DNA of 64,000 nt from a virus (taxonomy: Duplodnaviria; Heunggongvirae; Uroviricota; Caudoviricetes): IMG/VR virus record IMGVR_UViG_3300033146_002139, positions 103,707 to 167,706 of that record, one strand, 5' to 3'. The notes below the pieces were generated by a model, which made no database searches, was not told where the DNA came from, and saw nothing but the letters and a program-made list of their open reading frames with translations. Each line of letters opens with the position of its first letter. The first letter of the stretch is position 1. Positions 15,537-62,577 of this stretch are shown here, piece after piece. The position numbers were made by a program, and so were the translations under genes.

Positions 15537-16325
15537 CTACTCCACTATTAAATTAGTACCTTTAAGAGCAAAACCCTTAAATTCATCTGTTTGTGCTTTC
15601 TCAATCCATTCATTATCAACATTATCTCCGTAATGGATAAGTAACATTTTACTCTTAATTTTACTAGCCAATTTTTTTAGTCCGTTGTAGTGTGCATGAA
15701 CACCACTTTCAAATGGAGATGTTTCACAATCTTGAATTATTAAGTCAACATCATCATAAAGACCCATAAGCTGATTTGGAGCATGTTGAGAATCGGTAGT
15801 CATCAATACCTTACTATTCCCTGTGTCTACTACTAAACCATAAGAGTCCATATAATTAAAACCGTTTACAATATGAATCATTTGAGCCGGTGTGAATTTT
15901 ACACCATCTATCGTAAAACTATTGTTATCTTTTATAGAATTAGGTTCAAAGTAGGTATGTAGTGTAGCCTCTTTTTCTCCATTTTTCATTTGGTGGCTAG
16001 CTAAACTTCCGAGCCCACCTGATAAAGAATTGCTCCATAATGTTTTCATTACATTGTGATTTGCAAAAAGTTTTATTTTTTCTTTTGTTGGGTCAAAGTA
16101 TGTCATAAAAGCCATATATTCTAACCCTCCAATATGGTCTGCATGAGCGTGGCTAATATAAATCCAATCTATGTCTGATGGTGAAAGTCTATAATCAGCT
16201 AGACTAATTTTAGTATCAAATCCACAATCTATAAGACCTTTAGTCTTATCTGTTTCAACAAGTATTAATGTGTTGTTGAATATTAAAGAGCTCATGTTCC
16301 CTGAGCCTAAAAATGTTAATTTCAT
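15537..16325 (-). CDS. MBL-fold metallo-hydrolase
   Basis: ISHAHADHIGG (HxHxDH motif) plus downstream D and H residues; 262 aa. Confidence 0.7.
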   Translation of the reverse strand: MKLTFLGSGNMSSLIFNNTLILVETDKTKGLIDCGFDTKISLADYRLSPSDIDWIYISHAHADHIGGLEYMAFMTYFDPTKEKIKLFANHNVMKTLWSNSLSGGLGSLASHQMKNGEKEATLHTYFEPNSIKDNNSFTIDGVKFTPAQMIHIVNGFNYMDSYGLVVDTGNSKVLMTTDSQHAPNQLMGLYDDVDLIIQDCETSPFESGVHAHYNGLKKLASKIKSKMLLIHYGDNVDNEWIEKAQTDEFKGFALKGTNLIVE

Positions 16326-19385: not shown

Positions 19386-20642
19386 TTAATTCTCCAATTC
19401 TATAAGATATTTTATTGTTGTCTGATTTCCTCTGTAGACAATCATTTCATTATTCTTTAAATCTATTCCTCCATGCGCGAAAACAGAATCATAGTCTCCT
19501 TTATTTTTTAATGTGTTAGCTGAAAGATTATAACAGCTTGAATCGTGTTTATGTATATCCATTTGCTTTCCAGTGTGAACTTTAAATACCGCCATAAATC
19601 CCGTATTATCACTACCACCTGACCAATAAGAACCTCTTAAAGATGTATATCCAAGAGATTTTCTTGCTTTATCTGCAAAGTATATCCCATCACCAAACAT
19701 AGAACCTGTGTAAACTGCAGAAGATGGTCTTATTAAAAGTCCTGTCTTCATTATATTTATAAAGTTCTCATTCCTGGAGCCGTGGAATAACAATGCTGTC
19801 GTTTTATCTTTGGAATCGGCAATGTTTTTATTAAAAACTTTTAATGTAGCTTTATTTGTAACTTCGTATGCCGTTTTAAACTTGTTAGATATTCCGCCAA
19901 GATGTTTTTTAATTTCAACTTCCTGTTTTGGATTGATTGTACTAACAGAAATACCAAGGACATCCAACATTGTTTTGTTGTCTAAAGTTTCTCCGGTTTC
20001 TTCTTCAGCCTCTAGTATCCCTACTTTTGTTGCCATAGAATCAAGATTGTCCTGTTCTTGTATAAGCATTTTTTTTATTTCAGCTACATTTTTTCTTAAA
20101 ATACCTGCCGTTTCTTCTATGAGATGGTCTGATACTCTCCCCATTCTTCGAGGTATTACCTGAAATAGGTCTGTAAGTGTTTCGTTGAAAAAGGTTACTT
20201 CTCTGCCTGTTTTAGCGTTAGAAAATAAGATATTTAGTAGTCTTTGTGCTTCGTCAACTTGCGACTGAGTAACAGACTCGGCAGATACAGTATAATTCGC
20301 TGCCACAGACTTGTTGGTATAATTCATTAATTGGATTATCAATTTTTCTATAACGGCGTTAGGAATTGGAGTATATCCAGATGATTTCGAGACAACCTTA
20401 ATCGAACGTCTTTCTGTTTCATCTTTATATCCTTTTGCTATTTTAGACTTATATACTTTATCCCATTTGTACATAGGGTAAATCTTCTCAGCCATACTAG
20501 CCCCATATCTTCCATACTCGGCTCTAAATCTGTCTCCGGTGATTTCTGTCATTCTATAAATCTTGTTGTTGTTTCTTCCCCCTGTTCCGTTTACCATTAT
20601 TAGCTCTACTGCTTGTCCATTCTCCACGTTTCCTGCTAACAA
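19386..20642 (-). CDS. PARP-like ADP-ribosyltransferase (WGR domain + helical region + H-Y-E catalytic domain)
   Basis: WGR-like N-terminus (KIYRMTEITGDRFRAEYGRYGAS...KWDKVYKSKIAKGYKDET). Catalytic LLFHGSRNENFINIMKTGLL (His-Gly-Ser), GSMFGDGIYFADKARKS (Tyr) and NNEMIVYRGNQ (Glu) match the PARP1-type H-Y-E signature. Confidence 0.75.
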   Translation of the reverse strand: MLAGNVENGQAVELIMVNGTGGRNNNKIYRMTEITGDRFRAEYGRYGASMAEKIYPMYKWDKVYKSKIAKGYKDETERRSIKVVSKSSGYTPIPNAVIEKLIIQLMNYTNKSVAANYTVSAESVTQSQVDEAQRLLNILFSNAKTGREVTFFNETLTDLFQVIPRRMGRVSDHLIEETAGILRKNVAEIKKMLIQEQDNLDSMATKVGILEAEEETGETLDNKTMLDVLGISVSTINPKQEVEIKKHLGGISNKFKTAYEVTNKATLKVFNKNIADSKDKTTALLFHGSRNENFINIMKTGLLIRPSSAVYTGSMFGDGIYFADKARKSLGYTSLRGSYWSGGSDNTGFMAVFKVHTGKQMDIHKHDSSCYNLSANTLKNKGDYDSVFAHGGIDLKNNEMIVYRGNQTTIKYLIELEN

Positions 20643-20753
20643 AAATTTACATAAATATAAACTTTTGAGTTTTACTGCTTCATCGTACTCGATTTCAATA
20701 TGATTCTCTCTACTCTCGTTGATTTTAATACTCCGCAGTCGTTAATTTCCTTA

Positions 20754-21896
20754 TTAGCCTAAGGTATTATATTTTACACAATTCTTAATATTGATACTTG
20801 CATTCAAATCTCTGTCCATTGAAAAACCACATTTGCAATTATATGTTCTATCTGTGAGCTTTAAGTCTCTTTTTATACTTCCACATTTAGAACAAGTTTT
20901 ACTACTTGGAAACCATTTGTCTATTATTCTTAGCTCAATATTATATTTTTTGCATTGTTGAGTAAGAAACTCTCTAAAATAATAAAACATTTGGTCTTTA
21001 ATTGCTTTTGATAAATGCTTATTTTTCAACATACTTTTAATTTTCAAATCTTCAATACTAATAAATTTTGGGTTTAGACTAACCAGTGAATTTACTACAA
21101 ATCTTACACATTCGACTCTAATATTGCTTAAGCGATAATGTAATCTTTGAACTCTTAATTTGTTTTTATATATGTTTCTGCTAGACTCTCCTTTTGTCTT
21201 AGTTTTAAATTTACGACTTAATTGTCGCTGTGATTTTTTTAATTTCTTTTCTAATCTTTTTATTTTCTTAGTTTTGTTTATATTTTTAAAGAATTCACCC
21301 TCACTTGTAACCGCAAATTCTTTAATTCCTAAATCGATTCCGATAGCTTTAGTTTTCTTTTTTGGATTCATCTTTTTGGATTCTTCCTCAACTAAAACAC
21401 TTACAAAGTATCTATCAGCTATTCGAGATACAGTTCCGGACTTAACTTTAGAATTTAAGGGAATATATCCAAATTCTTTTAATCTTACAAATCCTAATGT
21501 GGGGATTTTAATTCTATGTCTTTCTAAAGTCCAATCATTTTTATTGTTCTTAGGTAGGTACATCTTGACTTTGCTATCTTTCTTTTTAAATCTTGGAAAT
21601 TTAGACTGTTTTTTAAAAAACTTCTTAAATGCCTTTTCTCCATTGAAAATAGACTGCTTTACAGATTTACTACTAACTTCTTTTATCCAGGAAAATTCCT
21701 TGTTAAATAATAGAAAATTATTATTAAGCCACTTGCTGAAGCTCATTGCAGATACAAATCTTTGTTCTTTTTCGTAAATCTCTTTATTGTATTTCAAGTA
21801 AAAATTATAAATAAATCTACAAGTCCCAAGAGTTTTATGCACTTTTTCTTTCTGCTTATCGTTTAGCTTTATTTCTATTTTATAGGATTTTAGCAT
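20754..21896 (-). CDS. tnpB: TnpB (OrfB, RuvC-like RNA-guided nuclease family)
   Basis: OrfB N-terminal domain, RuvC-I IGIDLGIKEFAVT, RuvC-II ISIEDLKIKSM, CSKCGS...CKCGF zinc finger, and RuvC-III DRDLNASINI. Confidence 0.8.
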   Translation of the reverse strand: MLKSYKIEIKLNDKQKEKVHKTLGTCRFIYNFYLKYNKEIYEKEQRFVSAMSFSKWLNNNFLLFNKEFSWIKEVSSKSVKQSIFNGEKAFKKFFKKQSKFPRFKKKDSKVKMYLPKNNKNDWTLERHRIKIPTLGFVRLKEFGYIPLNSKVKSGTVSRIADRYFVSVLVEEESKKMNPKKKTKAIGIDLGIKEFAVTSEGEFFKNINKTKKIKRLEKKLKKSQRQLSRKFKTKTKGESSRNIYKNKLRVQRLHYRLSNIRVECVRFVVNSLVSLNPKFISIEDLKIKSMLKNKHLSKAIKDQMFYYFREFLTQQCKKYNIELRIIDKWFPSSKTCSKCGSIKRDLKLTDRTYNCKCGFSMDRDLNASINIKNCVKYNTLG

Positions 21897-22392: not shown

Positions 22393-24669
22393 TTATCTTT
22401 TGACGACTTCTCCTGGCTGATTTTTTAAGAAGTTGGAATTTTCATCGTTCTTCTTAACGGCAATGCCGGATTGGTCCTCGTACATTTCACGGGTTAATCG
22501 TTGGTCTTTCCCTTCCGTAATTATCCCTCTGTCTCTTATAAACTCTGTATACATAGCTCCTTTATAGCCTGATAATTTGTTTTTTGCATATTTTGTTTTT
22601 ACTGCAACCTTTTCTGCATCAATACCTATATCACTATTGAAGCATAATAGCCATACTAGATTTGCATTATAAGCAAATTTTCCTGTTTCCATAATATCAT
22701 CTAATGTAGGTTCTTTATACCTTCCATCGTGACTACTTTTCTTTCTTAATTCTACCGTAACAAATAATGGGATATTATAGGTATCTACTAAGTTTTTAAC
22801 TAGATTTGCTCTAAGTATATTTTGAAGTCTCAAATCCATATGTCCTACATCAAGATTAAAAACTCCATCTATAAGAACCATAACATCTTTACTTTTATAA
22901 CTTTCAATAGTCTTTTCTAGGTGGTATCTTAAAATGTCGTAGCTCACGATAGTTTCTATGTCAAATATCAACAATCTATCATTTAGCCATTCTTGTAATT
23001 TATTTGTCGCATATGTGTATATACCTCGAAGAGACATCATTTCTATTCTTGTTTCTGCATTAACACCATCATCAGCTTTTATTTCAAACTCTATATTAGC
23101 AACATCAGACAAATGTCTAGGTTTTTGTATTTGGTTTATAGTCAAATTTCCTTGACTTAAAATTGCTACAATTCTGTTTATCATTATGTCGAAATTATCA
23201 TCAAGTGAATATATTATTTGGTAGAGCTTTTTGTTTGATATCATTGCATCTACGAACACATTTAAAGAAATCTGTGTGTTGTGGGTAAGTATAAAATCTT
23301 TAGTAGCATAAAGATGGTCTTTTGAATCAACAGATATGCAAGTAGCATAATCATCAAAAGCATATTCTATTGATTTAATATAATTATATTCTCCCTTTTT
23401 TGCAGGTTTTACTTTTTCAGCTTTTCTTTTTAACTTAAAAGGATTTATGTCAGAGCTGAATTTTACATACACTCTGTAATTTATCCTAGTTTCCTTGTAA
23501 GAGCCATCTGCTAATTTATATCCTCCCATTCTTTGAGAGAAAGATGCTCTAGCCCCTAACGACCTAGCAATCTGAATTACATTGTCTTTTAGTTTTTCGG
23601 AAGTAGTAGAATACTCCGTAACTCTGCTACTCTCCACATAAGAACCGTCTGTATCAAACAACCCTCTTAGCATTTCTAGTCTATCATCTATTGTTGACAT
23701 TAGGTAATCCGACGGTATGAATTTTTCAAAACTTTTTTTATTTTTTAATCCATAGCTATCCAATACTCTTCTGAAGTCCTGTATTCCAGAGACGAAGTAA
23801 TCGCAATTATCTCCCTTTCTCTTTTTTAAAACCCCTTTGTGTTTTTTAAGTAGCATATTAAAGTCGTCAACCATCTCCTTGTCTAAAGATGCAAATCCAA
23901 AAAAATTCCCTGAATAACAACCATCTCCAAGAAACATCCCTAGTAAATAAGGGTGCATTTTTAATTCTTTTTTTGCATACTGAACAGGAGCTATTCTTTT
24001 TATTGCGTGTCTTTTTGCCCCGTTATTGCGGTGTAATGTTGCAACGATTTCTTTAGTAGTTTTTATAGAACCAGTCTTTTCTCCTTTTCTATTTTTATTG
24101 GTATAGGTGTACCATCTATGTTCTAAATCAGCAAAAGTAATAGACCCATCAGACATAGTAACTTTGTAAAGAGGTCTCTTATTTTGAGGGAAAACATCTA
24201 AAACTTTGGTAGGTTTTCCGTCTGACCCTATAACAAAATCTCCGACTTTTAAGTCCCCATTTTTTACATATCCATCTGGAGTTGGAATGAGTTCATTGTC
24301 CCAAAGCGCCTTTCCGATATTACTAGCCCCTCCTATAATGTATAGCCCATTCTGAACCCCATCCAATAAACCTTCTGTCTGACTAAATGTTCTCAGTTTA
24401 TGCCCTATTAAATCTTCTCTTGCATAATCCCTTGTTATCTTATCTGATAATCTTTTTTTCAAATCAGGGACTTCGTATTCGGTATAAGTACCTGCTACTG
24501 AATTTGAAAACAGGTTTGATACAAATTCTACATCGTTATCGCTAAACTCACTTACCTTTGTTCCGGTTTTCTTTTCTATAAAATCAACAAACTCTGATAC
24601 GAAAAACATCCTGTTTGTTTCTGGGATATCCTGCTTAGGAGTGTTGTTGAATATTTCAGCATGATTCAT
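22393..24669 (-). CDS. DnaB-like replicative helicase interrupted by an intein
   Basis: The Walker A GGASNIGK | TQISL is split by a 344-aa insert. The C-extein has Walker B VMVLIDGVFNLD and a RecA-fold C-terminal domain. ATGA-coupled to the primase. Confidence 0.8.
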   Translation of the reverse strand: MNHAEIFNNTPKQDIPETNRMFFVSEFVDFIEKKTGTKVSEFSDNDVEFVSNLFSNSVAGTYTEYEVPDLKKRLSDKITRDYAREDLIGHKLRTFSQTEGLLDGVQNGLYIIGGASNIGKALWDNELIPTPDGYVKNGDLKVGDFVIGSDGKPTKVLDVFPQNKRPLYKVTMSDGSITFADLEHRWYTYTNKNRKGEKTGSIKTTKEIVATLHRNNGAKRHAIKRIAPVQYAKKELKMHPYLLGMFLGDGCYSGNFFGFASLDKEMVDDFNMLLKKHKGVLKKRKGDNCDYFVSGIQDFRRVLDSYGLKNKKSFEKFIPSDYLMSTIDDRLEMLRGLFDTDGSYVESSRVTEYSTTSEKLKDNVIQIARSLGARASFSQRMGGYKLADGSYKETRINYRVYVKFSSDINPFKLKRKAEKVKPAKKGEYNYIKSIEYAFDDYATCISVDSKDHLYATKDFILTHNTQISLNVFVDAMISNKKLYQIIYSLDDNFDIMINRIVAILSQGNLTINQIQKPRHLSDVANIEFEIKADDGVNAETRIEMMSLRGIYTYATNKLQEWLNDRLLIFDIETIVSYDILRYHLEKTIESYKSKDVMVLIDGVFNLDVGHMDLRLQNILRANLVKNLVDTYNIPLFVTVELRKKSSHDGRYKEPTLDDIMETGKFAYNANLVWLLCFNSDIGIDAEKVAVKTKYAKNKLSGYKGAMYTEFIRDRGIITEGKDQRLTREMYEDQSGIAVKKNDENSNFLKNQPGEVVKR
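23278..24309 (-). mobile_element. class 3 intein with LAGLIDADG homing endonuclease (within the helicase gene)
   Basis: Ala1 start (ALWDNELIPTPDG), block B GSITFADLEHRW (T..H..W), LAGLIDADG motifs LLGMFLGDG and LRGLFDTDGS, block F DDYATCISV (Cys), block G FILTHN followed by Thr+1. Together these give the WCT triplet. Confidence 0.65.
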
Positions 24670-30145: not shown

Positions 30146-30254
30146 AATCGTATAGCATCAAGTGGTAGAGCAAGTTGCTTATTAAATGATTTGAAAAATC
30201 GTCCAATTGCGGATTATCAGCTAAGGGTTGCAGGTTCGAGTCCTGTTGCGATTA
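30146..30254 (+). tRNA. tRNA-like element of atypical length (about 109 nt): acceptor pairing, D-arm-like GCAT-CAAGTGGTA-GAGC, GAA anticodon-loop-like hairpin, canonical T-arm GCAGG-TTCGAGT-CCTGT
   Basis: AATCGTA (30146-52) pairs with TGCGATT (30247-53). The T-loop GGTTCGAGTCC is present. The hairpin ATGAT-TTGAAAA-ATCGT (30186-30202) mimics a Phe anticodon loop. The spacing does not fit a standard cloverleaf. Confidence 0.35.
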
Positions 30255-30271
30255 CTTTATAAGGGAAAAAT

Positions 30272-36870: not shown

Positions 36871-37024
36871 CGAGGTAGCGATGAGCAACAAAGCACTAGT
36901 AACAATTGTAAGGATAGTTTCAGTTAGCCTACTTAGTTTTATAATGTACAATGCAGATGTAATGTGGGGGCTTTAGTCGCAATATATTTATTGGCGGATA
37001 ATGTAGATTAAATAAGGGTTTAAA

Positions 37025-37798
37025 ATGAAAGAAAAGTTTAGAGCATTAAAAGGGTCTGAATTACTATCACTTAAAGATAAGTGGTTAATGAGAAAAGGTA
37101 TGCCACATATACACTATAATGTGACGGATATAAATACAGATACCGATTGTGTTATCGTAGGCAATGATTGGCGTTCAGCCACTCAGTTATTAAATGATTG
37201 GATTTACACAAACGATAAACCTGTAGGAATAGAGATAGAGTTAAGTTCAGATGGCTATACACTTGAAGAGTTTTTAGTTAGAGCCAATGATGACTGTAGT
37301 AATGTAGAGTTTAATGATGACGTGGAATGGCACATTACAAAAGCAAAGAACAGAGAAGAGTTGTCTAATTCTATTGTAGACGGATTAGATAATTATCGTA
37401 TCAAGCCTACACCTAAATACATTCGTCCTAAAGTAGGCTTTCGTGGTAGAATTAAAGGGGAGTTTTACAATCCTTTATTTTCAAGATGGGAGGAAGCTTC
37501 TTGCGTATCGATTATAAATGAAACAAGGTGTGAAGACCCTGGTGGAAATGGAATAGGGTATCTTTTATTATCAAAAGACAACACTTCTTTCTTTGCTAAT
37601 GAGTTTAGACTACTACCATTCTCAGCAGAGAATCCACCACCAGTGGGGACGAGGTTTAGAAAAGAAGGATGGGATAGTGATTATTGGGAAAGATACTACT
37701 CAGACGATAAAGACGGAGGTGTCTTTAGTGAAAACGGAAAATCCTACAAATGGAGCGAAGTAGAATTTATTGATTTTGAAAAATGCAAGGAGACTTAG
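37025..37798 (+). CDS. hypothetical protein
   Basis: 257 aa. Confidence 0.55.
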   Translation: MKEKFRALKGSELLSLKDKWLMRKGMPHIHYNVTDINTDTDCVIVGNDWRSATQLLNDWIYTNDKPVGIEIELSSDGYTLEEFLVRANDDCSNVEFNDDVEWHITKAKNREELSNSIVDGLDNYRIKPTPKYIRPKVGFRGRIKGEFYNPLFSRWEEASCVSIINETRCEDPGGNGIGYLLLSKDNTSFFANEFRLLPFSAENPPPVGTRFRKEGWDSDYWERYYSDDKDGGVFSENGKSYKWSEVEFIDFEKCKET

Positions 37799-38008
37799 AT
37801 GCAGAAAAGTTGCGGGAGTTGCAGATATTTTACGAAAATGTTAAATACAAAGCCAGGAACGATAAACGGTCTTTGCGAGATAGACGACTGCGGAGTTAGT
37901 ACAGACACCATATGTACAAAATGGAAAAGCATTAAAAACAAAAGAAACAAATATAAAACAAGAGAAAACATAAAAAATTATTTTTTAACGGAGACAGAAG
38001 ATGAGTAG
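37799..38008 (+). CDS. small Cys-rich protein
   Basis: CGSCRYF...CEIDDCG...CTKW. Confidence 0.45.
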   Translation: MQKSCGSCRYFTKMLNTKPGTINGLCEIDDCGVSTDTICTKWKSIKNKRNKYKTRENIKNYFLTETEDE

Positions 38009-38195
38009 CTCAAATAATAGTTCAGGCGGAGTAGGATTTTTAGGATTGTTAACAATAGTATTTATAGTATTGAAATTAACAGAAGTTATAAGTTGGAGTT
38101 GGATTTGGGTATTATCGCCTATTTTTATTCCAGCTGCAATTCTTGTCATTGTGGCAATAGGAACATTGATATTTTTAGGCTTGAGGGATATGTAA
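38001..38195 (+). CDS. small membrane protein (2 TM)
   Basis: GFLGLLTIVFIVL and IFIPAAILVIVAIGTLIFLGL. Confidence 0.45.
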   Translation: MSSSNNSSGGVGFLGLLTIVFIVLKLTEVISWSWIWVLSPIFIPAAILVIVAIGTLIFLGLRDM

Positions 38196-38389
38196 TGACA
38201 TACCTACATATATTAAACGAAACTAAAAAAGAAACAACAGTAAAAGAACTAAAAGACCATTGCGAAGAATATATGACAAACGATGAGAATATGGGTTGCG
38301 GAGAATGCAAATATAGAAGATTTTGCGAGGAATTTATCAAAAATAACAAATACCTGAGGGACACACCTCTTGAACTATTACTAAAATAA
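38195..38389 (+). CDS. small Cys-containing protein
   Basis: MTYLHILNETKK...CGECKYRRFCEEF; ATGA-type overlap with the preceding gene. Confidence 0.4.
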   Translation: MTYLHILNETKKETTVKELKDHCEEYMTNDENMGCGECKYRRFCEEFIKNNKYLRDTPLELLLK

Positions 38390-38429
38390 TCGAAAAATAA
38401 CTTGACAAAAAAGAAATAAAAGGTTACAT

Positions 38430-38786
38430 TTGATTACTACTTTTAAGGGCTATGAGATGAAAAAATTATACAGATACTCGTATCAAATCGACCACTCTAA
38501 CTTTTTCACTTTAGCTGTTGATGTGAAATTTATAAAAGAAGAATATTTTGTTTTAAAAGAAACAGAAAAATCATACATTATAAACTATGGATTCAGACAG
38601 AAGGTTGTAAGAAAAAAAGGAATAAATCTATTTGCTTTTGATACAGAAGAAAAAGCATTTTACAATTTTACCAATAGAAAAAAAAGTCAGCAAGAACATT
38701 TAAAAGCTAAACTTGCAGTAATAAATACTGTTGTTGAAAAGATAGATAAAGAGGGTTTTGATGGACAAAACAAATTTAGGAAATAG
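38430..38786 (+). CDS. hypothetical protein
   Basis: Preceded by TTGACA-17-TACATT at 38402-38430; an alternative start at ATG 38456 (MKKLYRY). Confidence 0.45.
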   Translation: MITTFKGYEMKKLYRYSYQIDHSNFFTLAVDVKFIKEEYFVLKETEKSYIINYGFRQKVVRKKGINLFAFDTEEKAFYNFTNRKKSQQEHLKAKLAVINTVVEKIDKEGFDGQNKFRK

Positions 38787-39576
38787 AATAAAAGACTATG
38801 AGGCGATAGAAAAAAAGAAGCTTTTTTCGCAAATTCCAATAGTAATTAGATTGGATGGTAAAAATTTTTCAAGATTTACAAAAGGAATGGAAAGACCATT
38901 TGACTTAAAGTTTAAAGAGATGATGCAAAAAACAACTAAATTCTTAGTTGACTATACAAATGCGAAAATAGGATACACACAGTCAGATGAAATATCGTTA
39001 GTGTTGTATTCTGATAACCACAAAAGACAAGTTTTTTTAGACGGAAAGAAGGATAAAATAAATTCTTTAATTGCTTCAAAATGCTCTGTGTTTTTCAATT
39101 CTTTACTTGAGGATTATTTTCCAGAAAGAAAAAGCTTGTTACCTATATTTGATTGTAGAAGTTTTAATGTTCCAACACTAGAAGAAGGGGTAAATGCAAT
39201 TCTATGGAGAGAATTAGATGCTACAAAAAACAGCATATCTATGTTAGCTCGACATCACTTTTCTCATAAACATCTACATGGGGTGCATACAGGAGATATG
39301 CTTGATATGCTTTACAGTATTGGAATCAATTGGAATGAACTAGAGACAAGCCTTAAAAGAGGGACTTATTACCAAAGAGTAAAAAGGCTAACCAAATTCA
39401 CTACATCTGAAATAGAAAAACTTCCCCCTAACCACGATGCTCTAACAAATCCAAACTTAATGATAGAAAGAAGTCTTGTCGAGAAGCTTGAGATGCCGAT
39501 AATAACAAAAGTTACAAACCAAACTAATGTGTTTTTTTACGGAGCTTTACCCAAAATAGAACTAAAGGATGTATAG
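38758..39576 (+). CDS. Thg1-like protein (tRNA-His guanylyltransferase family 3'-5' nucleotidyltransferase)
   Basis: IPIVIRLDGKNFSRF and KIGYTQSDEISLVL (the conserved SDE), plus a C-terminal NSISMLARHHFS region. Confidence 0.75.
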   Translation: MMDKTNLGNRIKDYEAIEKKKLFSQIPIVIRLDGKNFSRFTKGMERPFDLKFKEMMQKTTKFLVDYTNAKIGYTQSDEISLVLYSDNHKRQVFLDGKKDKINSLIASKCSVFFNSLLEDYFPERKSLLPIFDCRSFNVPTLEEGVNAILWRELDATKNSISMLARHHFSHKHLHGVHTGDMLDMLYSIGINWNELETSLKRGTYYQRVKRLTKFTTSEIEKLPPNHDALTNPNLMIERSLVEKLEMPIITKVTNQTNVFFYGALPKIELKDV

Positions 39577-39789
39577 ATGACACTAAAAGAGGCGACAGAA
39601 AAAGCTAATAAACTAAAATCAAATTATCGAGAGATGAATAAGTTAGAAGACGAAAATTTTGATTTATATGACGAACTAGAAGTTTTTATAAAAAATTCGA
39701 TAGATACTGAAAATGAAGCGATACTAGAAGAAAGTGGATTAACACTTACATTTTTAAGAAAATACAAATTCGAAAGCACGGAGTTTTAA
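39577..39789 (+). CDS. hypothetical protein
   Basis: 70 aa. Confidence 0.45.
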   Translation: MTLKEATEKANKLKSNYREMNKLEDENFDLYDELEVFIKNSIDTENEAILEESGLTLTFLRKYKFESTEF

Positions 39790-40532
39790 TGTTTAAAGGA
39801 AAAGCAATATATAAACCAGCGGGAAAAGCTAAAGAATATGCAGAATGGGCTTGTAATTTTTATGTAGGATGCTCAAGCGAATGTACTTACTGTTACCTAA
39901 AACAAGGTAGGGGAGCTAAAATTCTTGGAGGTAACATTCCAACTTTAAAAAAATGTTTTAAAGATGAAGAAGATGCAATCGAAATTTTCGAGAAAGAGCT
40001 ACTAAAAAACCTTGACGAAATTAGGGAAGACGGAATATTTTTCAGTTTTTCTACAGACCCCGCTATTAAAGAAACTTTCGGAATGACTGTAAGAGCTATC
40101 AATACCTGTATGGAATACTATGTTCCTGTGACGATTTTAACTAAGAGTAAGTTAACAGCTTTTACCATGTTTAATTGGGTTAACAAGATATATCACAACA
40201 ACTACAAAAATCTAGTAACTGTCGGAATCACACTAACAAGACATGACGAACTAGAACCTAATGCAGACACTAATCAGGAAAGAATAACAGGATTGTCGAG
40301 TTGCTATAATGCAGGGTTTAAGACTTTCGTGTCTATAGAACCTATAATTGACTTTCCTAGCTCAAAAAAAATGATAGAAGAAACTGTAGATGTCTGTAAT
40401 ATGTATAAAATCGGAATCAATAAAGGACAATCTTACGATAAATACGAAGCGGTAAAGTTTGCAACGTGGGTCAAAAATAATGTTTCTAATTACATGTTTA
40501 AGGATAGCTTTAAAAAGCTAATTGGAGAATAG
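39789..40532 (+). CDS. radical SAM protein (SplB/COG1533-like?)
   Basis: WACNFYVGCSSECTYCYL (Cx3Cx2C); 247 aa. Confidence 0.6.
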   Translation: MFKGKAIYKPAGKAKEYAEWACNFYVGCSSECTYCYLKQGRGAKILGGNIPTLKKCFKDEEDAIEIFEKELLKNLDEIREDGIFFSFSTDPAIKETFGMTVRAINTCMEYYVPVTILTKSKLTAFTMFNWVNKIYHNNYKNLVTVGITLTRHDELEPNADTNQERITGLSSCYNAGFKTFVSIEPIIDFPSSKKMIEETVDVCNMYKIGINKGQSYDKYEAVKFATWVKNNVSNYMFKDSFKKLIGE

Positions 40533-40725
40533 TATGAAGTTTATAGGCAAGGAAGAAACAGGAATGAGCACAGCAAGTAAAATAACTACTAATACTGTAT
40601 GGTATATATTTTTTATTCCAGTCAAATGGAAGAAAGAAATTAGAGACAGAAATGGAAAAGTGCTAAATAACGAAATCTTTTCACTGTTCAACTTCGGGAA
40701 TAATATACAGCAGAACGGAGGCTAG
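40522..40725 (+). CDS. hypothetical protein
   Basis: 67 aa. Confidence 0.35.
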   Translation: MENSMKFIGKEETGMSTASKITTNTVWYIFFIPVKWKKEIRDRNGKVLNNEIFSLFNFGNNIQQNGG

Positions 40726-40726
40726 G

Positions 40727-40960
40727 ATGAGCACAACATTTGCAATAAAACGAAAAGGATTTGAAAAGATAGACCTAAACAACGAAAATTCCTTTATAGA
40801 GGTAGCTTTCCAAGTATCTTCTATTGGATGGAAAAATGAACTTGGACCGTATCTACCACACTCCTTAAAAGTATATCCTATAGACAATGATAATGACGAA
40901 ATCTTCACCATTGGAGATATCGTAAGAAAAATAGAACATCCCGATACACAGGAGCAATAA
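40727..40960 (+). CDS. hypothetical protein
   Basis: 77 aa. Confidence 0.45.
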   Translation: MSTTFAIKRKGFEKIDLNNENSFIEVAFQVSSIGWKNELGPYLPHSLKVYPIDNDNDEIFTIGDIVRKIEHPDTQEQ

Positions 40961-41392
40961 ATGAAGAATGAAAAAAGAATAGTACTTAATAGAATAAAAA
41001 CACCTGACGGAACTATATTAACCAGCCATTCAAGACATGACTATGTAGTTTATACTGATAGTAATGGCTTTAGGTATTCTGTTGATGGTGGAAATGACTA
41101 TTTAAAAAGAAGTTTCCAAGATGGAGCTCCGCATTGTAAAGAGCTTTCTGTGTATTCCGATTCGCCGTTTGAGGAAATAAGAAAATCCTATCATAGAGGT
41201 GGTACTATAACGGGTGTATTAAAATGGGTTCCTTTAAATGAGATGAGCAACAAGTGGCTAGCAAATTGCATCGACTATAACATAGACAAAGGATTTGAAA
41301 AAGATTGCTTTCCTAATCAGATGTATCAAAGAGAATTAGACTACAGAAAAAAGAAAGACATATTTATTCCGGACGATAGAAATGACAAGTGA
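40961..41392 (+). CDS. hypothetical protein
   Basis: 143 aa. Confidence 0.5.
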   Translation: MKNEKRIVLNRIKTPDGTILTSHSRHDYVVYTDSNGFRYSVDGGNDYLKRSFQDGAPHCKELSVYSDSPFEEIRKSYHRGGTITGVLKWVPLNEMSNKWLANCIDYNIDKGFEKDCFPNQMYQRELDYRKKKDIFIPDDRNDK

Positions 41393-43939: not shown

Positions 43940-44512
43940 ATGAATATATTTTTTACATCAGACCTACATCTTTTTCATAAAAAGATAATAGAATTTGAAA
44001 ATAGACCCTTTGCCTCTATAGAAGATATGACCGAAAAGTTAATCGAAAATTGGAATAAAGTAGTAAACAAGGGAGATGAGGTATTTATCTTAGGAGACTT
44101 TTCATTTGGAAAGCCAGAGGAAACTATGGATGCTTTAAAAAGGCTCAACGGTCAAAAATTTTTGGTTGAAGGAAATCACGATAGGGTAACGCCGGAGATT
44201 AAAAAACAGTTTGTATGGGTCAAGCCATATGTTAAAATCAAAAGAAAAAACAAAACTATGGTATTATGCCACTATCCAATACATGTATGGGAAAACCAAC
44301 ATTGGGGAACATTGCATTTTTATGGACATGTGCATAACGATAAAGCTAGAAAAACAATAAAGTGCGATATGGTTAATTCTTATAATGTTGGTGTAGATGT
44401 AAACAACTTTACTCCAGTGTTGATGGAAGATGCAATAATACTTGCTAGGCAAACAGAAAACAGAGTACAACCCTATATTATAAAGTCCTCAAGCAGTAGC
44501 AATAAATCGTAA
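43940..44512 (+). CDS. calcineurin-like metallophosphoesterase
   Basis: FFTSDLHLFH, ILGDFSF and VEGNHD (the MPP motifs D-x-H, GD, GNH[D/E]). Confidence 0.65.
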   Translation: MNIFFTSDLHLFHKKIIEFENRPFASIEDMTEKLIENWNKVVNKGDEVFILGDFSFGKPEETMDALKRLNGQKFLVEGNHDRVTPEIKKQFVWVKPYVKIKRKNKTMVLCHYPIHVWENQHWGTLHFYGHVHNDKARKTIKCDMVNSYNVGVDVNNFTPVLMEDAIILARQTENRVQPYIIKSSSSSNKS

Positions 44513-44723: not shown

Positions 44724-45923
44724 ATGTCAAAAATTTTTGTAACAGATAATAAAGACAAACCTTTGCTTCCAACAAGTGAAGCTAGAGCTAGATTGTTATT
44801 GAAAAATAATAAAGCTACTGTTGTGTCTATATTCCCTTTTACAATAAAACTTAAAAAAGAAATACTAAAACCAGCAGGAGAGTTTAAATGTGGAATAGAT
44901 GACGGAGCGAAATGGATAGGGATTGCAATTGCGAATAACAAAAAAGTTGTATTTGCAGGTAACATAAAACTGAGGCAAGATGTTAGCAGAAAAATACTTT
45001 CACGAAGTCAATATAGGCGAGCTAGGAGGACTAGAAATTTAAGACACCGTAAGGCTAGATTTTTAAACAGAGGCTCTAAAGGTTGGATTCCGCCAACAAT
45101 AAAACAAAAGAAAGATTCAGTTTTAAGAGTTATTGACTTTATGAAAAAACGATTAAACATAACCGAATGTGTTGTCGAACAGGGACAGTTCGATATTTCC
45201 TCGATGAGTGCAGGTTACAAGCTAACTGGGAAAGAATACCAATTAAGTCAATATAAAGGTAGTAACTTTAGAGAAAAAGTCCTTTGGAGAGATAAATTTG
45301 AATGTCAAAAATGCAAGTCAAAAGAGAGGCTTCAGGTACATCATATTACCTTCAAATCTAACGGTGGAACTAATATTGTTTCCAATGGAACAACTCTTTG
45401 TGAAAAGTGCCATAAATCCCTACACAATAAAGAGTGGGCATTAAAAAAGAAAGTAAAACACTTTAAATACCCAACTCATCTTCAGCAAGGAAAGAATTAT
45501 TTATTCTCTGAATTAAGTAAAAGGATTAGTAGTACAAGAATTTGTTTTGGCTGGATGACAAGTAAAAACAGAAAAGAATTGGGCTTAGAAAAAGACCATT
45601 ATTTGGACGCAAGTGCAATGATTAAAACAAACAAGTTCAATTGTACTCCTTATCAGATTAAGCCTAGAAGAAGCAAATTAAATATTAAAAGTGCAACTAA
45701 AAAATGTACAGAAAAAAACGGCTTTAGACATTTTGATATTGTTAAAAGCCATAATAGAAATCATGGAATTATTGTAGGCTCAATACGAAGCTTGAAGAAA
45801 TCGGCAATAACCTTAAGAACCTCTTTTGATGATAATTTCGCAGTAAGTTATAATAAAAGTAAAATACTAGAGCGACCTAAAGGTTTGATATTTATAAATC
45901 TACAGGTTATACAAAAACTATAA
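44724..45923 (+). CDS. iscB: IscB (OMEGA RuvC-HNH RNA-guided nuclease, Cas9-ancestor family)
   Basis: PLMP domain (NKDKPLLPTSEARARLL), RuvC-I CGIDDGAKWIGIAI, Arg-rich bridge helix RSQYRRARRTRNLRHRKARF, HNH CQKCKS...LQVHHITFKSNGGTNIVSNGTTLCEKCHKSLHN, RuvC-III KDHYLDA. Confidence 0.8.
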   Translation: MSKIFVTDNKDKPLLPTSEARARLLLKNNKATVVSIFPFTIKLKKEILKPAGEFKCGIDDGAKWIGIAIANNKKVVFAGNIKLRQDVSRKILSRSQYRRARRTRNLRHRKARFLNRGSKGWIPPTIKQKKDSVLRVIDFMKKRLNITECVVEQGQFDISSMSAGYKLTGKEYQLSQYKGSNFREKVLWRDKFECQKCKSKERLQVHHITFKSNGGTNIVSNGTTLCEKCHKSLHNKEWALKKKVKHFKYPTHLQQGKNYLFSELSKRISSTRICFGWMTSKNRKELGLEKDHYLDASAMIKTNKFNCTPYQIKPRRSKLNIKSATKKCTEKNGFRHFDIVKSHNRNHGIIVGSIRSLKKSAITLRTSFDDNFAVSYNKSKILERPKGLIFINLQVIQKL

Positions 45924-55781: not shown

Positions 55782-55860
55782 GGGGATGGATTGGTTTCGA
55801 TTGGATGTAAAGCTTACAAGAGCAAATCTCAAGACAGCGGTTCGAATCCGCTCATCTCCA
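55782..55860 (+). tRNA. 79-nt tRNA-like / tmRNA tRNA-like-domain-like element (perfect acceptor + T-arm, non-canonical D/anticodon region)
   Basis: GGGGATG...AGCGG-TTCGAAT-CCGCT-CATCTCC-A gives a 7-bp acceptor stem and a canonical T-arm. The 5' end GGGGAUGGAUUGGUUUCGAUUGG resembles the tmRNA 5' end GGGGCUGAUUCUGGAUUCGACGGG. I could not find a 5-7-5 anticodon arm. Confidence 0.4.
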
Positions 55861-56097
55861 TCAATAGAGGCGAGAATGAAAGAAAGTGTGTTAATTAAGA
55901 GCAAGCCAAATTACTATGCAATAGAATACAGGAAAGGGACGGTGCTTTTGCAAAGAAAAGTGGTCGAGTGCGGGACAGACCCTGCAATATCAACTGAAGA
56001 AGAGGTTATTTTATATTTATGTAAAAAAATCGAAGAGTTAGAATGTAAAACAGGAGACAAAAAGTGAAGAATATATTTTGTTCAAAAAAGGAAATGT

Positions 56098-56589
56098 TTG
56101 ATGATAGAAATCATAGAAATCATAGATGAATTAGGCAAAAAAGAACAAGCAAGGATAACAATCGATGAAAGCGTAAAACAATACATGTCTCTTCCATATA
56201 CTACAATGACAATCCCAGAAGATGATGGGTCTATTTTTATCAAAATAAAAGAATTACCTGGATGTATGAGTGTTGGTAAAGACATTTCTGATGCATACGA
56301 GATGATTAAAGAAGCTATGGAAGGATGGCTTGAGGCCGCAATGATATCGGGATATGAAATTTTATTACCAGATGGAGTGAGTCCGGGAGACAAAAATAAA
56401 GATACATATGTGTACCAACTTGTATACACCGACTCTCCAAGAACAGGATGGGCAGTACTTAGCGTACACAGTACAATTTCAGGAGCATATAAGGCTTTAA
56501 ACGAAAGTAAGCTAGAAACTTACAATAGTCAAGGCATAATACATGAGGATGAAGATTGGATTGTAAAAAGAGTAAAACTTGAGGATTAG
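56098..56589 (+). CDS. hypothetical protein
   Basis: 163 aa. Confidence 0.5.
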   Translation: MMIEIIEIIDELGKKEQARITIDESVKQYMSLPYTTMTIPEDDGSIFIKIKELPGCMSVGKDISDAYEMIKEAMEGWLEAAMISGYEILLPDGVSPGDKNKDTYVYQLVYTDSPRTGWAVLSVHSTISGAYKALNESKLETYNSQGIIHEDEDWIVKRVKLED

Positions 56590-61377: not shown

Positions 61378-62577
61378 TTATCCTTTTATAACCATTAATG
61401 GTGTTAGTTTATGCTCTATACTAACTAAGTCTTTTTGCTCTTCCATTACTATATCTATTGACTTGTAAGCTGAAGGAGCTTCGTCTAAATCATCTACAGT
61501 ATTTATAGAATGTATAATGCCTTGGGAATCAAGAATTTTTTTCTCGGAATCAATATCTAAATCTTCTTTAGCCTTGGTCCTGCTCATCTTTCTTCCAGCT
61601 CCATGACTTGCTGAGTTAAAAGAATCTTTATTTCCTAGACCCTTTACTATATAAGAAGACGTTCCCATTGACCCAGGAATTACACCGATTTCGCCTTTTC
61701 TTGCAGAGATAGCGCCTTTTCTATGCACCATAACATTTTTACCAAAGTGATTCTCAATTCTAGCATAGTTATGTTTTACGTCTATTAACCCAGAAAGGCT
61801 AAAATTGTATTTTTCGCTAAGGATGTTTTTAAAGCTTAGCATTATATTTTTCATCATTAGCAATCTATTTTCTCTTGCATATTCCACACAGTATTCCATT
61901 TCTCTTATATAGGACATTCCTACAGCAGAGTGTATAGGTAAAAATGCAAGGTCTAATTTTGGATTTACTACAGAATAATACTGTTCATTTACCTCTTTCG
62001 CCATTGCGTTGTAAGCCTTAGCAATTTGATAGCCTAAGTTTCGGCTTCCACTATGAATCATCACCCAAATAAAGTTATCTTTATCTTTTTGAATTTCGCA
62101 AAAATGATTCCCAGAGCCGAGGGTTCCTAGAGAATTTATTGCGTTATTATAGTGGTCTTCTAGTACGGGGCAATCTCCTTGAAGAGGAATTGATTCCATA
62201 ATATGTTTTCTTTCAGCATTTTCTAGTTGGTGCCTACTAAACCCTGTCGGTATTACTTTTTCTATCTCTGCCTTTATAAGTAAAAGTTTCTCCTTACTAA
62301 CTTCGTCGGTTTTCCATTTAGTCTTCAGTGCTGCGACTCCACACCCAATATCTACTCCGATTGCGTTTACAATTACTACATCTTCAGTAGCTAACACTCC
62401 TCCAATGGGCATCCCATATCCCTGGTGAACATCGGGCATTAATGCTATATGCTTGAAAGCAAAAGGTAAGTTTGCCAAATTAACTGCTTGGTCAATAGCT
62501 CCTTGTTCAGGATTGTCGCACCAAGACTTAATGTGCAGACGAATTGCATCTCCGCCAATATCATTTATATACAACAT
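61378..62577 (-). CDS. rtcB: RtcB-family RNA ligase (3'-phosphate/5'-OH RNA-splicing ligase)
   Basis: LMPDVHQGYGMPIGGV, GSGNHFCEIQ, HSGSRNLG, NYARIENHFG, PGSMGTSSYIV and SASHGAGRKMSR are all RtcB metal/GMP-site motifs. Confidence 0.8.
   Translation of the reverse strand: MLYINDIGGDAIRLHIKSWCDNPEQGAIDQAVNLANLPFAFKHIALMPDVHQGYGMPIGGVLATEDVVIVNAIGVDIGCGVAALKTKWKTDEVSKEKLLLIKAEIEKVIPTGFSRHQLENAERKHIMESIPLQGDCPVLEDHYNNAINSLGTLGSGNHFCEIQKDKDNFIWVMIHSGSRNLGYQIAKAYNAMAKEVNEQYYSVVNPKLDLAFLPIHSAVGMSYIREMEYCVEYARENRLLMMKNIMLSFKNILSEKYNFSLSGLIDVKHNYARIENHFGKNVMVHRKGAISARKGEIGVIPGSMGTSSYIVKGLGNKDSFNSASHGAGRKMSRTKAKEDLDIDSEKKILDSQGIIHSINTVDDLDEAPSAYKSIDIVMEEQKDLVSIEHKLTPLMVIKG

Follow-up and report, generated by a model that had tools for sequence, protein, structure and literature searches.

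A phage-encoded Thg1-like protein of predicted bacterial type and a distant RtcB ligase as probable parts of an RNA-repair gene set

What does a tailed phage gain from a Thg1-family 3'-5' nucleotidyltransferase, and does that enzyme belong with the RtcB RNA ligase encoded on the same DNA? The window, by which we mean the whole 64-kb stretch of viral DNA that was analysed, had been read from its letters alone as carrying a tRNA-end repair toolkit, directed against host tRNA-cleaving defences or at the maintenance of phage tRNAs. That initial annotation counted among its parts a Thg1-like protein (TLP), RtcB, an ATP-dependent ligase, a calcineurin-type phosphoesterase, an MBL-fold hydrolase and two tRNA-like RNAs. 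The features concerned are as follows.

5400-6704, minus strand: ATP-dependent DNA ligase (PF01068 and an OB domain)
15537-16325, minus strand: MBL-fold hydrolase, best match the anti-Pycsar protein Apyc1 (PF23023, 71 bits)
30146-30255, plus strand: weak tRNA-like element between genes, called by ARAGORN only with introns allowed
38761-39576, plus strand: TLP gene, 271 amino acids and a stop codon (Pfam, PHROG, PDB match, AlphaFold)
43940-44512, plus strand: calcineurin-type metallophosphoesterase, 190 amino acids (Pfam Metallophos_2, 33 bits)
55782-55863, plus strand: 82-nt tmRNA that consists of the tRNA-like domain and has no coding region (Rfam RF00023, covariance model)
61378-62577, minus strand: RtcB RNA ligase gene, 399 amino acids (Pfam PF01139, PHROG 1075, P. 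horikoshii alignment)

An open reading frame of the Thg1 type is indeed present at 38758-39576 on the plus strand, and the two motifs originally quoted for it, IVIRLDGKNFSRF and GYTQSDEISLVL, are both found in its product. The length of 272 residues first given is correct if translation is counted from the alternative TTG start codon at 38758; the likely start, however, is the ATG at 38761, hence 271 residues, and a protein of that length identical to this one exists in the public collection (P0001). A Shine-Dalgarno-like GAGGG lies upstream of the start. The Pfam Thg1 profile (PF04446) matches the TLP over all of its 130 positions with 108.2 bits (cut-off 29.2), and PHROG 4717, 'tRNA-His guanylyltransferase', matches with an E-value of 5.6e-77; these matches are far beyond chance. 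Megablast of the 4 kb around the gene (37000-41000) against GenBank phages gave no nucleotide match, and the best protein identity among the listed phage records is ~47-49%. Homologs of the TLP occur in 164 GenBank phage records, many annotated as tRNA-His guanylyltransferase (PHROG 4717), and the clade has at least 589 matches in viral contigs; outside viruses it is found chiefly in Myxococcota and Planctomycetota.

Among proteins of known structure, the top sequence match is BtTLP, the bacterial TLP of Bacillus thuringiensis (4kgk, E 3.6e-36), followed by the Thg1 of C. albicans (2e-13), human Thg1 (1e-8) and the TLP of M. acetivorans (8.8e-7); the eukaryotic Thg1 sequences of the PDB fall between 1e-8 and 2e-13. 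The AlphaFold model (pLDDT 91.9, pTM 0.88) is predicted to adopt the polymerase-palm-like Thg1/TLP fold. When this model was compared with the PDB by Foldseek, ranks 1-32 were all Thg1 or TLP structures, the best being 4kgm (E 9e-21, TM 0.83-0.85), and the relatives were ranked in the same order by fold as by sequence. In both respects, the phage protein is closer to BtTLP than to Thg1 or to the archaeal TLP, which bears out its earlier placement with the bacterial 5'-end-repair enzymes.

The active site points the same way. The metal-binding SDE site that had been claimed for the TLP is intact on alignment, with D32, D76 and E77 all in place; in 26 members of the clade D76 and E77 are invariant, D32 is nearly so and S75 is also conserved. 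The three conserved carboxylates correspond to D29/D76/E77 of hTHG1 and D30/D75/E76 of BtTLP (PMC3701042), and E14, R30, D32, S75, D76, E77, K99 and R133 align with residues defined in the same paper as essential in BtTLP, ScThg1 or hTHG1. R45 occupies the position of the activation-step lysine (BtTLP K43, ScThg1 K44), a lysine-to-arginine change that is, at the level of sequence, conservative; arginine is nearly invariant there in the clade, and serine is the consensus at position 37, where S37 of the phage TLP replaces the ribose-contacting BtTLP H35. M161 stands at the BtTLP M158 position, at which ScThg1 (N161) and hTHG1 (N158) have an asparagine that is the eukaryote-specific adenylylation residue (PMC3701042). 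Absent, too, is HINNLYN, the eukaryotic anticodon-reading motif whose H154 stacks on anticodon base G36 (PMC6471195); the aligned segment of the phage TLP reads D-A-T-K-N-S-I-S-M, with T155 opposite H154. Since the TLP has neither HINNLYN with its H154 nor the asparagine at 161, reading of the GUG anticodon is not expected of it, and nor is non-templated addition of G-1 opposite A73. Taken with the structural model, the residues indicate a bacterial-type TLP and not a eukaryotic-type Thg1. Bacterial TLPs (BtTLP and MxTLP), and archaeal TLPs too, repair 5'-truncated tRNAs in vitro (PMC3061083), and we infer that the phage protein would do so by Watson-Crick templating; it is predicted to be a templated 3'-5' nucleotidyltransferase with tRNA 5' ends as its target. 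The literature searched held no biochemically characterised phage TLP.

RtcB is equally well preserved. Its coordinates had been given correctly, and its strand is the minus strand, the plus strand being full of stops. PF01139 matches it with 375.8 bits (cut-off 27) over profile positions 1-426 of 426, PHROG 1075 matches as well, and D76, C79, N157, H158, H175, H269 and H325 align with D95, C98, N202, H203, H234, H329 and H404 of the P. horikoshii enzyme, H325 being the histidine nucleophile. Loss of these metal ligands, or of the catalytic carboxylates of the TLP, had been named in advance as refuting the repair reading; the carboxylates are in place, and in RtcB the Asp, Cys and His ligands and the nucleophile are all kept. 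RtcB is a predicted GTP- and Mn-dependent ligase that would seal a 3'-phosphate or 2',3'-cyclic-phosphate to a 5'-OH. The description of the TLP as lying 'alongside' RtcB, by contrast, is misleading, as 21.8 kb separates the genes and they lie on opposite strands.

The remaining enzymes divide. The calcineurin-type phosphoesterase is confirmed as a Metallophos_2 protein; its gene follows that of the TLP on the same strand at a distance of 4.4 kb, and its gene context makes it a candidate RNA-end-healing enzyme. The ATP-dependent ligase is, by its PF01068 and OB domains, a DNA ligase and no part of tRNA repair. Likewise the MBL-fold hydrolase is present, but its best match is Apyc1 and by its sequence it looks like an anti-CBASS/Pycsar cyclic-nucleotide phosphodiesterase. 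Both were therefore rejected as RNA-repair parts. No PF09414 ligase, Rnl1-type ligase or RlaP was found by tblastn in the 64-kb window, nor was Pnkp detected there, and no RNA ligase adjoins the TLP gene.

The gene neighbourhoods of the TLP clade were examined in 81 related viral loci with a 10-kb radius, and in 80 cellular loci for adjacency of TLP and RtcB. In 13 of the 81 viral loci the TLP gene has an RNA ligase (PF09414 or Rnl1-type), RlaP or RtcB as a neighbour inside that radius, often less than 2 kb away and in the same orientation, for example at 11 nt in L025 and 27 nt in L065. The cassette of L038 runs Rnl1 ligase, metallophosphoesterase, RlaP, TLP; homologs of the metallophosphoesterase of the window sit inside two repair cassettes, this one (L038/L039) and that of L055, and no more than 10 kb from TLP in a further four loci (L027, L033, L051, L054). 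The TLP family does, then, belong to an RNA-repair guild. RtcB itself is within 10 kb of TLP in one of the 81 viral loci and none of the 80 cellular ones, so that we rejected a TLP-RtcB operon; both proteins are encoded by several jumbo phages in culture (FLC9, Viktualia, CcrPW, CcrColossus, Gurke and Kikimora). tRNA or tmRNA genes occur within 10 kb in 23 of the 81 viral loci, and all 162 are co-oriented with TLP. Their density is flat over 0-10 kb, which makes the linkage regional and led us to reject a tight one. The proposed toolkit is thus supported in part. TLP and RtcB are intact, and relatives of the former lie in repair cassettes elsewhere, as do homologs of the metallophosphoesterase; the parts are dispersed here, and the DNA ligase and the Apyc1-like hydrolase drop out.

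The two tRNA-like RNAs are of unequal standing, and neither is an ordinary tRNA, of which default ARAGORN finds none in the 64-kb window; tRNA-His is likewise lacking within it. The RNA at 55782-55863 is solid. It scores 54.2 bits with RF00023 (gathering score 47), with ~21 nt in place of ~312 model positions. Its acceptor stem of 7 bp contains G3:U70, its D-loop, GGNUUCGA, is of the tmRNA type, and a T-arm is present. It has no tag reading frame, pseudoknots or mRNA-like domain, and ARAGORN reports no tmRNA and no tag peptide in the window. The viral contigs of IMG/VR hold at least 108 copies of the family to which this RNA belongs, each of ~78-83 nt, with a perfect acceptor stem in 87 and G3:U70 in 107 of the 108. 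In the alignment all 44 members have G3:U70 and compensatory changes are seen at 12 of the 19 pairs, and the covariance model of the family scores the copy at 55782-55863 at 73.8 bits. This family, the element at 30146-30255 and the tRNA-His genes that follow TLP in Planctomycetota are by-products of the analysis that are more unusual than the TLP itself. The gene neighbours of the tmRNA-like RNAs are heterogeneous; the RNA is absent from the 81 TLP loci, the 108 loci that carry one contain neither TLP nor RtcB, and no link of the RNA to either enzyme was found. Its nearest counterpart is the 'TLD-only' tmRNA of mycobacteriophage DS6A (Hudson, Lau & Williams 2014, PMC4131195; PMC11915505), the only phage case cited in the literature searched, which is also barely more than the tRNA-like domain of a tmRNA and has no tag reading frame; in contrast to it, the RNA described here is one of a covarying family of at least 108 copies. 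The DS6A RNA has been proposed to inhibit host trans-translation, perhaps by titrating SmpB (PMC4131195; PMC11915505), and these two sources cite alanylation, SmpB binding and inhibition of trans-translation as reported for a DS6A-like molecule in E. coli.

The element at 30146-30255 is probably the second RNA that was meant, and it is weak. Its Rfam tRNA score of 19.2 bits is under the gathering score of 29, and ARAGORN, with introns allowed, places a 33-nt intron in it and leaves its anticodon ambiguous. The acceptor helix, D-loop and T-arm are good, with ~33 extra nucleotides in or near the anticodon arm. Inspection by eye revealed no bulge-helix-bulge splice motif, searches of phage records returned generic T-arm matches and no homolog, and the literature searched contained no report of short tRNA introns in phages. 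Similar insertions of 25-52 nt are called within the tRNA arrays of related phages, with candidates in L003, L004 and L067.

Based on these observations, we propose that the TLP, with RtcB, is part of the translation-maintenance and RNA-repair set of large phages and mends tRNA 5' ends, a reading that we favour and hold to be reasonably probable. The TLP, predicted to be catalytically competent, would use ATP or GTP to activate the 5'-monophosphate of a 5'-shortened tRNA and would then add the missing nucleotide or nucleotides in the 3'-5' direction, with the 3' side of the acceptor stem as template; such repair would include restoring G-1 opposite C73 on tRNA-His. RtcB, in the same accessory gene set, would seal breaks whose termini are a 2',3'-cyclic-phosphate and a 5'-OH, and the metallophosphoesterase at 43940-44512 would probably belong to the set as a healer of RNA ends. 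The three genes are dispersed in this genome and form no operon. The lack of an operonic link between TLP and RtcB speaks against the proposal, as does the failure to detect an archease or RtcA near RtcB or an ATP-dependent RNA ligase. So do the rarity of RtcB near TLP in the viral loci, the flat tRNA density around viral TLP genes and the lack of ordinary tRNAs in the window, and the R45 and S37 shared by the clade may weigh against it too. Family, fold, active-site residues and the linkage of the clade to RNA ligases, RlaP and tRNA genes were observed; the substrates that we assign to the TLP, a host-defence nuclease as the source of the damage and cooperation of the TLP with RtcB are inferred, and the pair might, as first put forward, serve as a counter-measure to anticodon nucleases. 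TLPs act on acceptor-stem 5' ends and not on anticodon-loop breaks, and we know of no phage-defence nuclease that truncates tRNA 5' ends.

Could the TLP instead be a dedicated G-1 enzyme that keeps phage or host tRNA-His chargeable by HisRS, with no general role in repair? Public annotation reads 'tRNA-His guanylyltransferase', DdiTLP2 has this role in Dictyostelium mitochondria (PMC6471195), and a tRNA-His gene follows TLP at 60-485 nt downstream in four genomes of Planctomycetota, while in the viral locus L007 one precedes it by 312 nt. C73 is present in all seven tRNA-His genes examined, so that G-1 would be added against a template, as TLPs prefer. However, the same seven genes all encode G-1 in the genome, whereby de novo addition is not obligatory, and an obligatory role was rejected for this reason. 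Moreover, tRNA-His accounts for 4 of the 162 tRNAs near viral TLP genes and is not enriched against an expectation of one in 20, and the lack of both the anticodon-recognition motif in the protein and tRNA-His in the window also counts against a dedicated enzyme, which we consider unlikely. Scarcely credible is a mitochondrial style of 5' editing, in which encoded acceptor mismatches are excised and resynthesised. TLPs perform such editing in the mitochondria of protists (PMC6471195), and in seven loci (L003, L004, L007, L010, L026, L056 and L067) TLP lies amid large arrays of tRNA genes that share its orientation, several non-canonical ones among them. Yet acceptor pairs 1-3 are mismatched in 8%, 7% and 7% of 161 tRNAs near TLP versus 11%, 5% and 4% of 150 control phage tRNAs, many of the apparent mismatches being artefacts of registration, and G1:U72 (24% versus 17%) is not clearly different; with no excess of mismatches over the controls, editing was rejected.

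A different view would make TLP and RtcB unrelated passengers of a gene-rich accessory region, with RtcB acting alone on rRNA, mRNA, tRNA halves or an insertion-bearing transcript and the TLP on a non-tRNA RNA such as the 5' end of a phage transcript or the tmRNA-like RNA. The distance and opposite strands of the two genes fit this view, as do the two non-canonical tRNA-like RNAs of the window and the occurrence of RtcB in 703 phage records versus 164 for TLP, from which it follows that most RtcB phages have no TLP. DdiTLP4 has been proposed to use non-tRNA substrates (PMC5041481). Against this view stand the tRNA arrays, RNA ligases and RlaP that repeatedly adjoin genes of the TLP clade and, for the tmRNA-like RNA, the mutual absence from the 81 TLP and 108 RNA loci; we think the passenger explanation quite unlikely. 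It is very improbable, in our judgement, that TLP and RtcB work on non-canonical tRNA-like transcripts of the phage itself rather than on host tRNAs cut by defence systems, RtcB splicing exons such as those of 30146-30255, the TLP finishing their 5' ends and the coding-region-less tmRNA stopping host trans-translation. Were it true, a bacteriophage would carry out protein-dependent tRNA splicing, with RtcB joining the exons of insertion-bearing tRNAs.

For the repair role that we favour, neither the gene nor the interpretation is new: phage Thg1 genes have already been annotated, a repair interpretation has already been published, and the TLP described here is one more divergent example of that pattern which leaves existing knowledge unchanged. 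What the neighbourhoods add is two testable hypotheses for the physiological role of bacterial and phage TLPs, one from viral contigs, in which TLP adjoins RNA ligases, RlaP and a metallophosphoesterase, and the other from Planctomycetota, in which it adjoins tRNA-His. The widespread viral family of coding-region-less tmRNAs and the insertion-bearing tRNA-like genes of phage tRNA arrays may be worth more to RNA biologists.

Of the characterised enzymes, BtTLP (PDB 4KGK/4KGM) offers the closest comparison. Its carboxylates D30/D75/E76 are matched by D32/D76/E77 of the phage TLP, and the two share the transfer-site arginines, a methionine at the M158 position and the lack of an anticodon-reading motif. 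They differ in that identity is only ~32-40%, in the clade-shared replacements of K43 by R45 and H35 by S37, and in a conserved C-terminal module of the clade, KFTxEEL..LPxKHxA..NPxLxIER, which extends past the end of the BtTLP alignment. Unlike BtTLP and the TLP of Myxococcus xanthus, this TLP is encoded by a phage. With eukaryotic Thg1 (human 3OTB, C. albicans 3WBZ, yeast 5XOX) it has in common the superfamily, the palm-like fold and the metal-binding carboxylates, whereas similarity is much weaker and T155 and M161 stand in place of H154 and the asparagine.

In phage T4, Pnkp and Rnl1 mend the anticodon-loop break of PrrC-cleaved tRNA-Lys by healing and then sealing, while RtcB seals directly with no healing step. 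The T4 pair resembles the proteins studied here in that both are phage-encoded and proposed to restore tRNAs damaged during infection, and Rnl1-type ligases and a phosphoesterase adjoin TLP in relatives of this phage; it differs in that the TLP would extend acceptor-stem 5' ends and that neither Pnkp nor Rnl1 is among the proteins detected in the window. Finally, jumbo phages encode RtcB and/or ATP-grasp RNA ligases, RlaP, a CCA-adding enzyme and, sporadically, a Thg1 that would put back 5' nucleotides, a gene complement that Iyer, Anantharaman, Krishnan, Burroughs & Aravind (2021, PMC7824862) read as a counter to tRNA-targeting RNases. Although the record of this phage, at 167.7 kb, is under the usual 200-kb cut-off for jumbo phages, its TLP and RtcB are the same components as those of the jumbo-phage RNA-repair guild.

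The open reading frame at 38758-39576 (+) exists and carries both motifs quoted in the initial annotation. Translation probably starts at the ATG at 38761, which is preceded by GAGGG and gives 271 aa; an identical protein (P0001) is present in a public collection, on a 167.7-kb JGI contig. Membership of the Thg1 family is confirmed by a Pfam match across the whole PF04446 profile (108 bits against a cut-off of 29), and PHROG 4717, 'tRNA-His guanylyltransferase', was matched at E 5.6e-77. The closest solved structure by sequence is the Thg1-like protein (TLP) of Bacillus thuringiensis (BtTLP; PDB 4KGK, E 3.6e-36), with eukaryotic Thg1 enzymes (E 1e-8 to 2e-13) and an archaeal TLP (8.8e-7) far behind. 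An AlphaFold model built from a 26-sequence alignment was confident (pLDDT 91.9), and its best 32 PDB fold matches were all Thg1 or TLP structures, BtTLP ranking first (TM 0.83-0.85). With residues as defined previously (PMC3701042; PMC6471195), the metal-binding carboxylates D32, D76 and E77 align, and S75, R30, R133, E14 and K99 are also kept. M161 takes the position of BtTLP M158, where eukaryotes have Asn, and HINNLYN, the eukaryote-specific anticodon-reading motif, is replaced by TKNSISM. Given the structure matches and these residues, the window protein is a TLP of the bacterial type and, strictly speaking, no Thg1.

Among the viral, Myxococcota and Planctomycetota TLPs of our clade alignment, the activation-step Lys (BtTLP K43) is replaced clade-wide by Arg, R45 here, and the ribose-contacting His (BtTLP H35), S37 here, is mostly Ser. 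A C-terminal module is conserved throughout the clade. Both substitutions and the module may point to nucleotides being used differently at activation. The second gene downstream of the TLP gene is a 247-aa ORF (39789-40532, +) that abuts a small ORF at 39577-39789; it has the canonical CX3CX2C motif of radical-SAM proteins (GCSSECTYCY), weak matches to Pfam Radical_SAM and SPL and a match to PHROG 13321 (function not known), and it did not recur near TLP genes at other loci.

RtcB had been placed correctly at 61378-62577, and its strand is minus. Its family is secure (Pfam RtcB, 376 bits), and in alignment D76, C79, N157, H158, H175, H269 and the nucleophile H325 are kept, so that all metal ligands are present. 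Neither the TLP carboxylates nor the RtcB ligands, the sequence-level points on which the tRNA-repair proposal was open to refutation, are missing. The two genes were described as lying alongside each other; they do share the window, but 21.8 kb apart and on opposite strands, and neither archease nor RtcA was evident beside the RtcB gene, whose neighbours have no Pfam matches. The rest of the supposed toolkit fared unevenly. The calcineurin-type metallophosphoesterase (MPE) is found at 43940-44512, whereas the 'ATP-dependent ligase' (5400-6704, -) belongs to the DNA ligases (PF01068 with an OB domain) and drops out of tRNA repair. The MBL-fold hydrolase is present (15537-16325, -), but its top family is anti-Pycsar Apyc1 (PF23023, 71 bits against a cut-off of 50); it is likely a cyclic-nucleotide-degrading anti-defence gene, not an RNA-repair enzyme. 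As for the two tRNA-like RNAs, that at 55782-55863 matches Rfam tmRNA, the case for 30146-30255 is weak, and default ARAGORN finds no tRNA gene in the window, where RAGATH-18 and the short 'tmRNA' are the sole Rfam matches at gathering thresholds.

Thg1-like genes are common in phages: tblastn matched 164 GenBank phage records, which are mostly of jumbo phages, and many of the genes are already annotated as tRNA-His guanylyltransferase. RtcB is in 703 such records, and both genes, 14-50 kb apart, occur in FLC9, Viktualia, CcrPW, CcrColossus, Gurke and Kikimora. TLP relatives are encoded by at least 589 IMG/VR stretches (clade-alignment search) and, among some 186,000 species-representative genomes, by 176 stretches, most of them from Myxococcota and Planctomycetota. 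Slightly different search patterns make the two counts only roughly comparable. Around 81 viral TLP genes, with flanks of up to 10 kb on each side, neighbouring ORFs were clustered and then searched against Pfam. RtcB was near the TLP gene in one locus (L047). Genes for tRNA or tmRNA occur in 23 of the 81, all 162 co-oriented with the TLP gene, which lies within or next to large tRNA arrays in L003, L004, L007, L010, L026, L056 and L067; because tRNA density shows no change with distance from the TLP gene, this linkage is regional, not tight. A PF09414 RNA ligase is found in eight loci (27 nt upstream of the TLP gene in L065), a T4 Rnl1-type ligase in L038/L039 and L055, RlaP in L038/L039 and L056/L057, and homologues of the window MPE in L027, L033, L038/L039, L051, L054 and L055. 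Compact RNA-repair cassettes result:

L038/L039, 4631-10810: Rnl1-type ligase, MPE, RlaP, TLP, then tRNA-Leu and tRNA-His (order in L038)
L055, 5356-12199: MPE, Rnl1-like ligase, TLP, PF09414 ligase
L025, 4509-6438: PF09414 ligase ending 11 nt upstream of the TLP gene

Since a ligase, RlaP or RtcB lies within 10 kb of the TLP gene in 13 of the 81 loci (about 10 distinct without near-duplicates), the data support membership of the TLP clade in an RNA-repair guild. The neighbourhoods also rescue the inclusion of the phosphoesterase.

Six loci from cellular genomes have a tRNA no more than 1 kb away from the TLP gene. Four, all Planctomycetota (Gemmataceae and relatives), have tRNA-His, on the TLP gene's strand and 60-485 nt downstream:

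L104, 6870-6945: tRNA-His
L115, 7289-7363: tRNA-His
L144, 2901-2975: tRNA-His
L146, 4381-4455: tRNA-His

This neighbour may hint at what bacterial TLPs do in vivo. In viral locus L007 a tRNA-His stands 312 nt upstream of the TLP gene; among all tRNAs close to viral TLP genes, tRNA-His shows no enrichment (4/162). As G-1 is genomically encoded opposite C73 in all seven tRNA-His genes looked at, the link, if functional, would be templated G-1 restoration or quality control rather than obligatory addition. Mitochondrial-type 5' editing found no support, the test for mismatches at acceptor pairs 1-3 in tRNAs near TLP genes being negative.

We consider it fairly probable that the TLP is active and would rebuild the acceptor-stem 5' ends of tRNAs by templated addition, including G-1:C73 of tRNA-His, within a set of phage genes for RNA repair and translation maintenance that is dispersed and would comprise RtcB and probably the MPE. 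The analysis shows the family, the fold, the active site and, in relatives, the guild context; the substrates, any joint action with RtcB and a part in counter-defence are what we infer. Cuts in the anticodon loop cannot be mended by TLPs, and we know of no defence nuclease that trims tRNA 5' ends; the proposed action against anticodon nucleases therefore applies, at best, to RtcB alone.

The weak tRNA-like element at 30146-30255 (+) has about 33 extra nt and no detectable homologue; in an alternative fold, the loop of an inner hairpin (30186-30202), UUGAAAA, resembles a Phe anticodon loop. Allowing introns of 10-60 nt, ARAGORN made 17 calls in the window and the 81 loci, whereas shuffled sequence gave 0-1. 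The majority are class-II tRNAs that it modelled in another way, and five tRNA-like elements have 25-52-nt insertions:

L004, 8749-8851: fills a gap within a phage tRNA array
L067, 5279-5389: fills a gap within a phage tRNA array
L003, 3469-3574
L051, 19541-19642
L007, 15661-15796

The insertions, that of the window element included, are in or near the anticodon arm and too short for group I introns; where they begin and end is ambiguous, and no motif for splicing could be established. Inside the tRNA arrays of TLP-encoding phages, ARAGORN also called tRNAs with 2- or 4-base 'anticodons' (odd-sized loops):

L004, 8517-8588
L007, 2667-2743
L016, 16121-16195
L067, 16473-16555 and 17522-17598

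A covariance model adds tRNA-like stretches that ARAGORN left uncalled, for example L010 5316-5399, L010 5684-5760 and L004 9752-9828.

The other RNA is a tmRNA tRNA-like domain with about 21 nt where the Rfam model has 312 positions:

55782-55863 (+): tmRNA tRNA-like domain without coding region, 82 nt (Rfam tmRNA, 54 bits)
56098-56589 (+): HicB-like antitoxin domain protein, about 230 nt downstream of this RNA

A pattern for such RNAs matches at least 108 IMG/VR viral stretches (L162-L269; RNAs of about 78-83 nt). The 3' acceptor strand was no part of the pattern; even so, the 7-bp acceptor stem is perfect in 87 of the 108, and G3:U70 is present in 107. A73 is usual, CCA is often encoded, and 12 of 19 pairs covary through compensatory changes. 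ARAGORN makes no call on family members, which do not co-localise with TLP or RtcB and have heterogeneous neighbours. The sole phage precedent in the literature searched is the 'TLD only' tmRNA of mycobacteriophage DS6A, proposed to titrate SmpB (PMC4131195; PMC11915505).

Elsewhere the window is taken up by replication and accessory genes, with a primase, Rad52, a PD-(D/E)XK nuclease, two DNA methylases, a PARP-like protein and a homing HNH endonuclease. Four TnpB and one IscB-like protein occur together in this 64-kb phage stretch:

10296-11477 (-), 20754-21896 (-), 49652-50746 (+), 51314-52432 (+): TnpB (OrfB_IS605 and Cas12f1-like TNB)
44724-45923 (+): IscB-like protein (RRXRR and HNH)
20672-20739 (-): RAGATH-18 RNA (Rfam, 57 bits)
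19386-20642 (-): 418-aa protein with C-terminal PARP catalytic domain (PF00644, 80 bits)
22393-24669 (-): 758-aa protein with internal LAGLIDADG/Hom_end homing-endonuclease domain

The RAGATH-18 RNA, directly downstream of the TnpB gene at 20754-21896, is plausibly its guide or omega-RNA scaffold. From its domain, the 418-aa protein is a possible ADP-ribosyltransferase, and the LAGLIDADG domain suggests an intein within a replication gene adjoining the primase.

The initial observation is thus confirmed and its interpretation partly supported, the window TLP being a divergent new example of a known phage gene. Repair of 5'-truncated tRNAs by bacterial TLPs has been shown in vitro (PMC3061083); for a phage TLP, the literature searched held no biochemical study. 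Iyer et al., 2021 (PMC7824862, section 3.4.9) described jumbo phages with RtcB, ATP-grasp RNA ligases, RlaP, a CCA-adding enzyme and sporadic Thg1, and interpreted this set as tRNA repair against host RNases. The TLP and RtcB of the window are components already in that jumbo-phage RNA-repair set.
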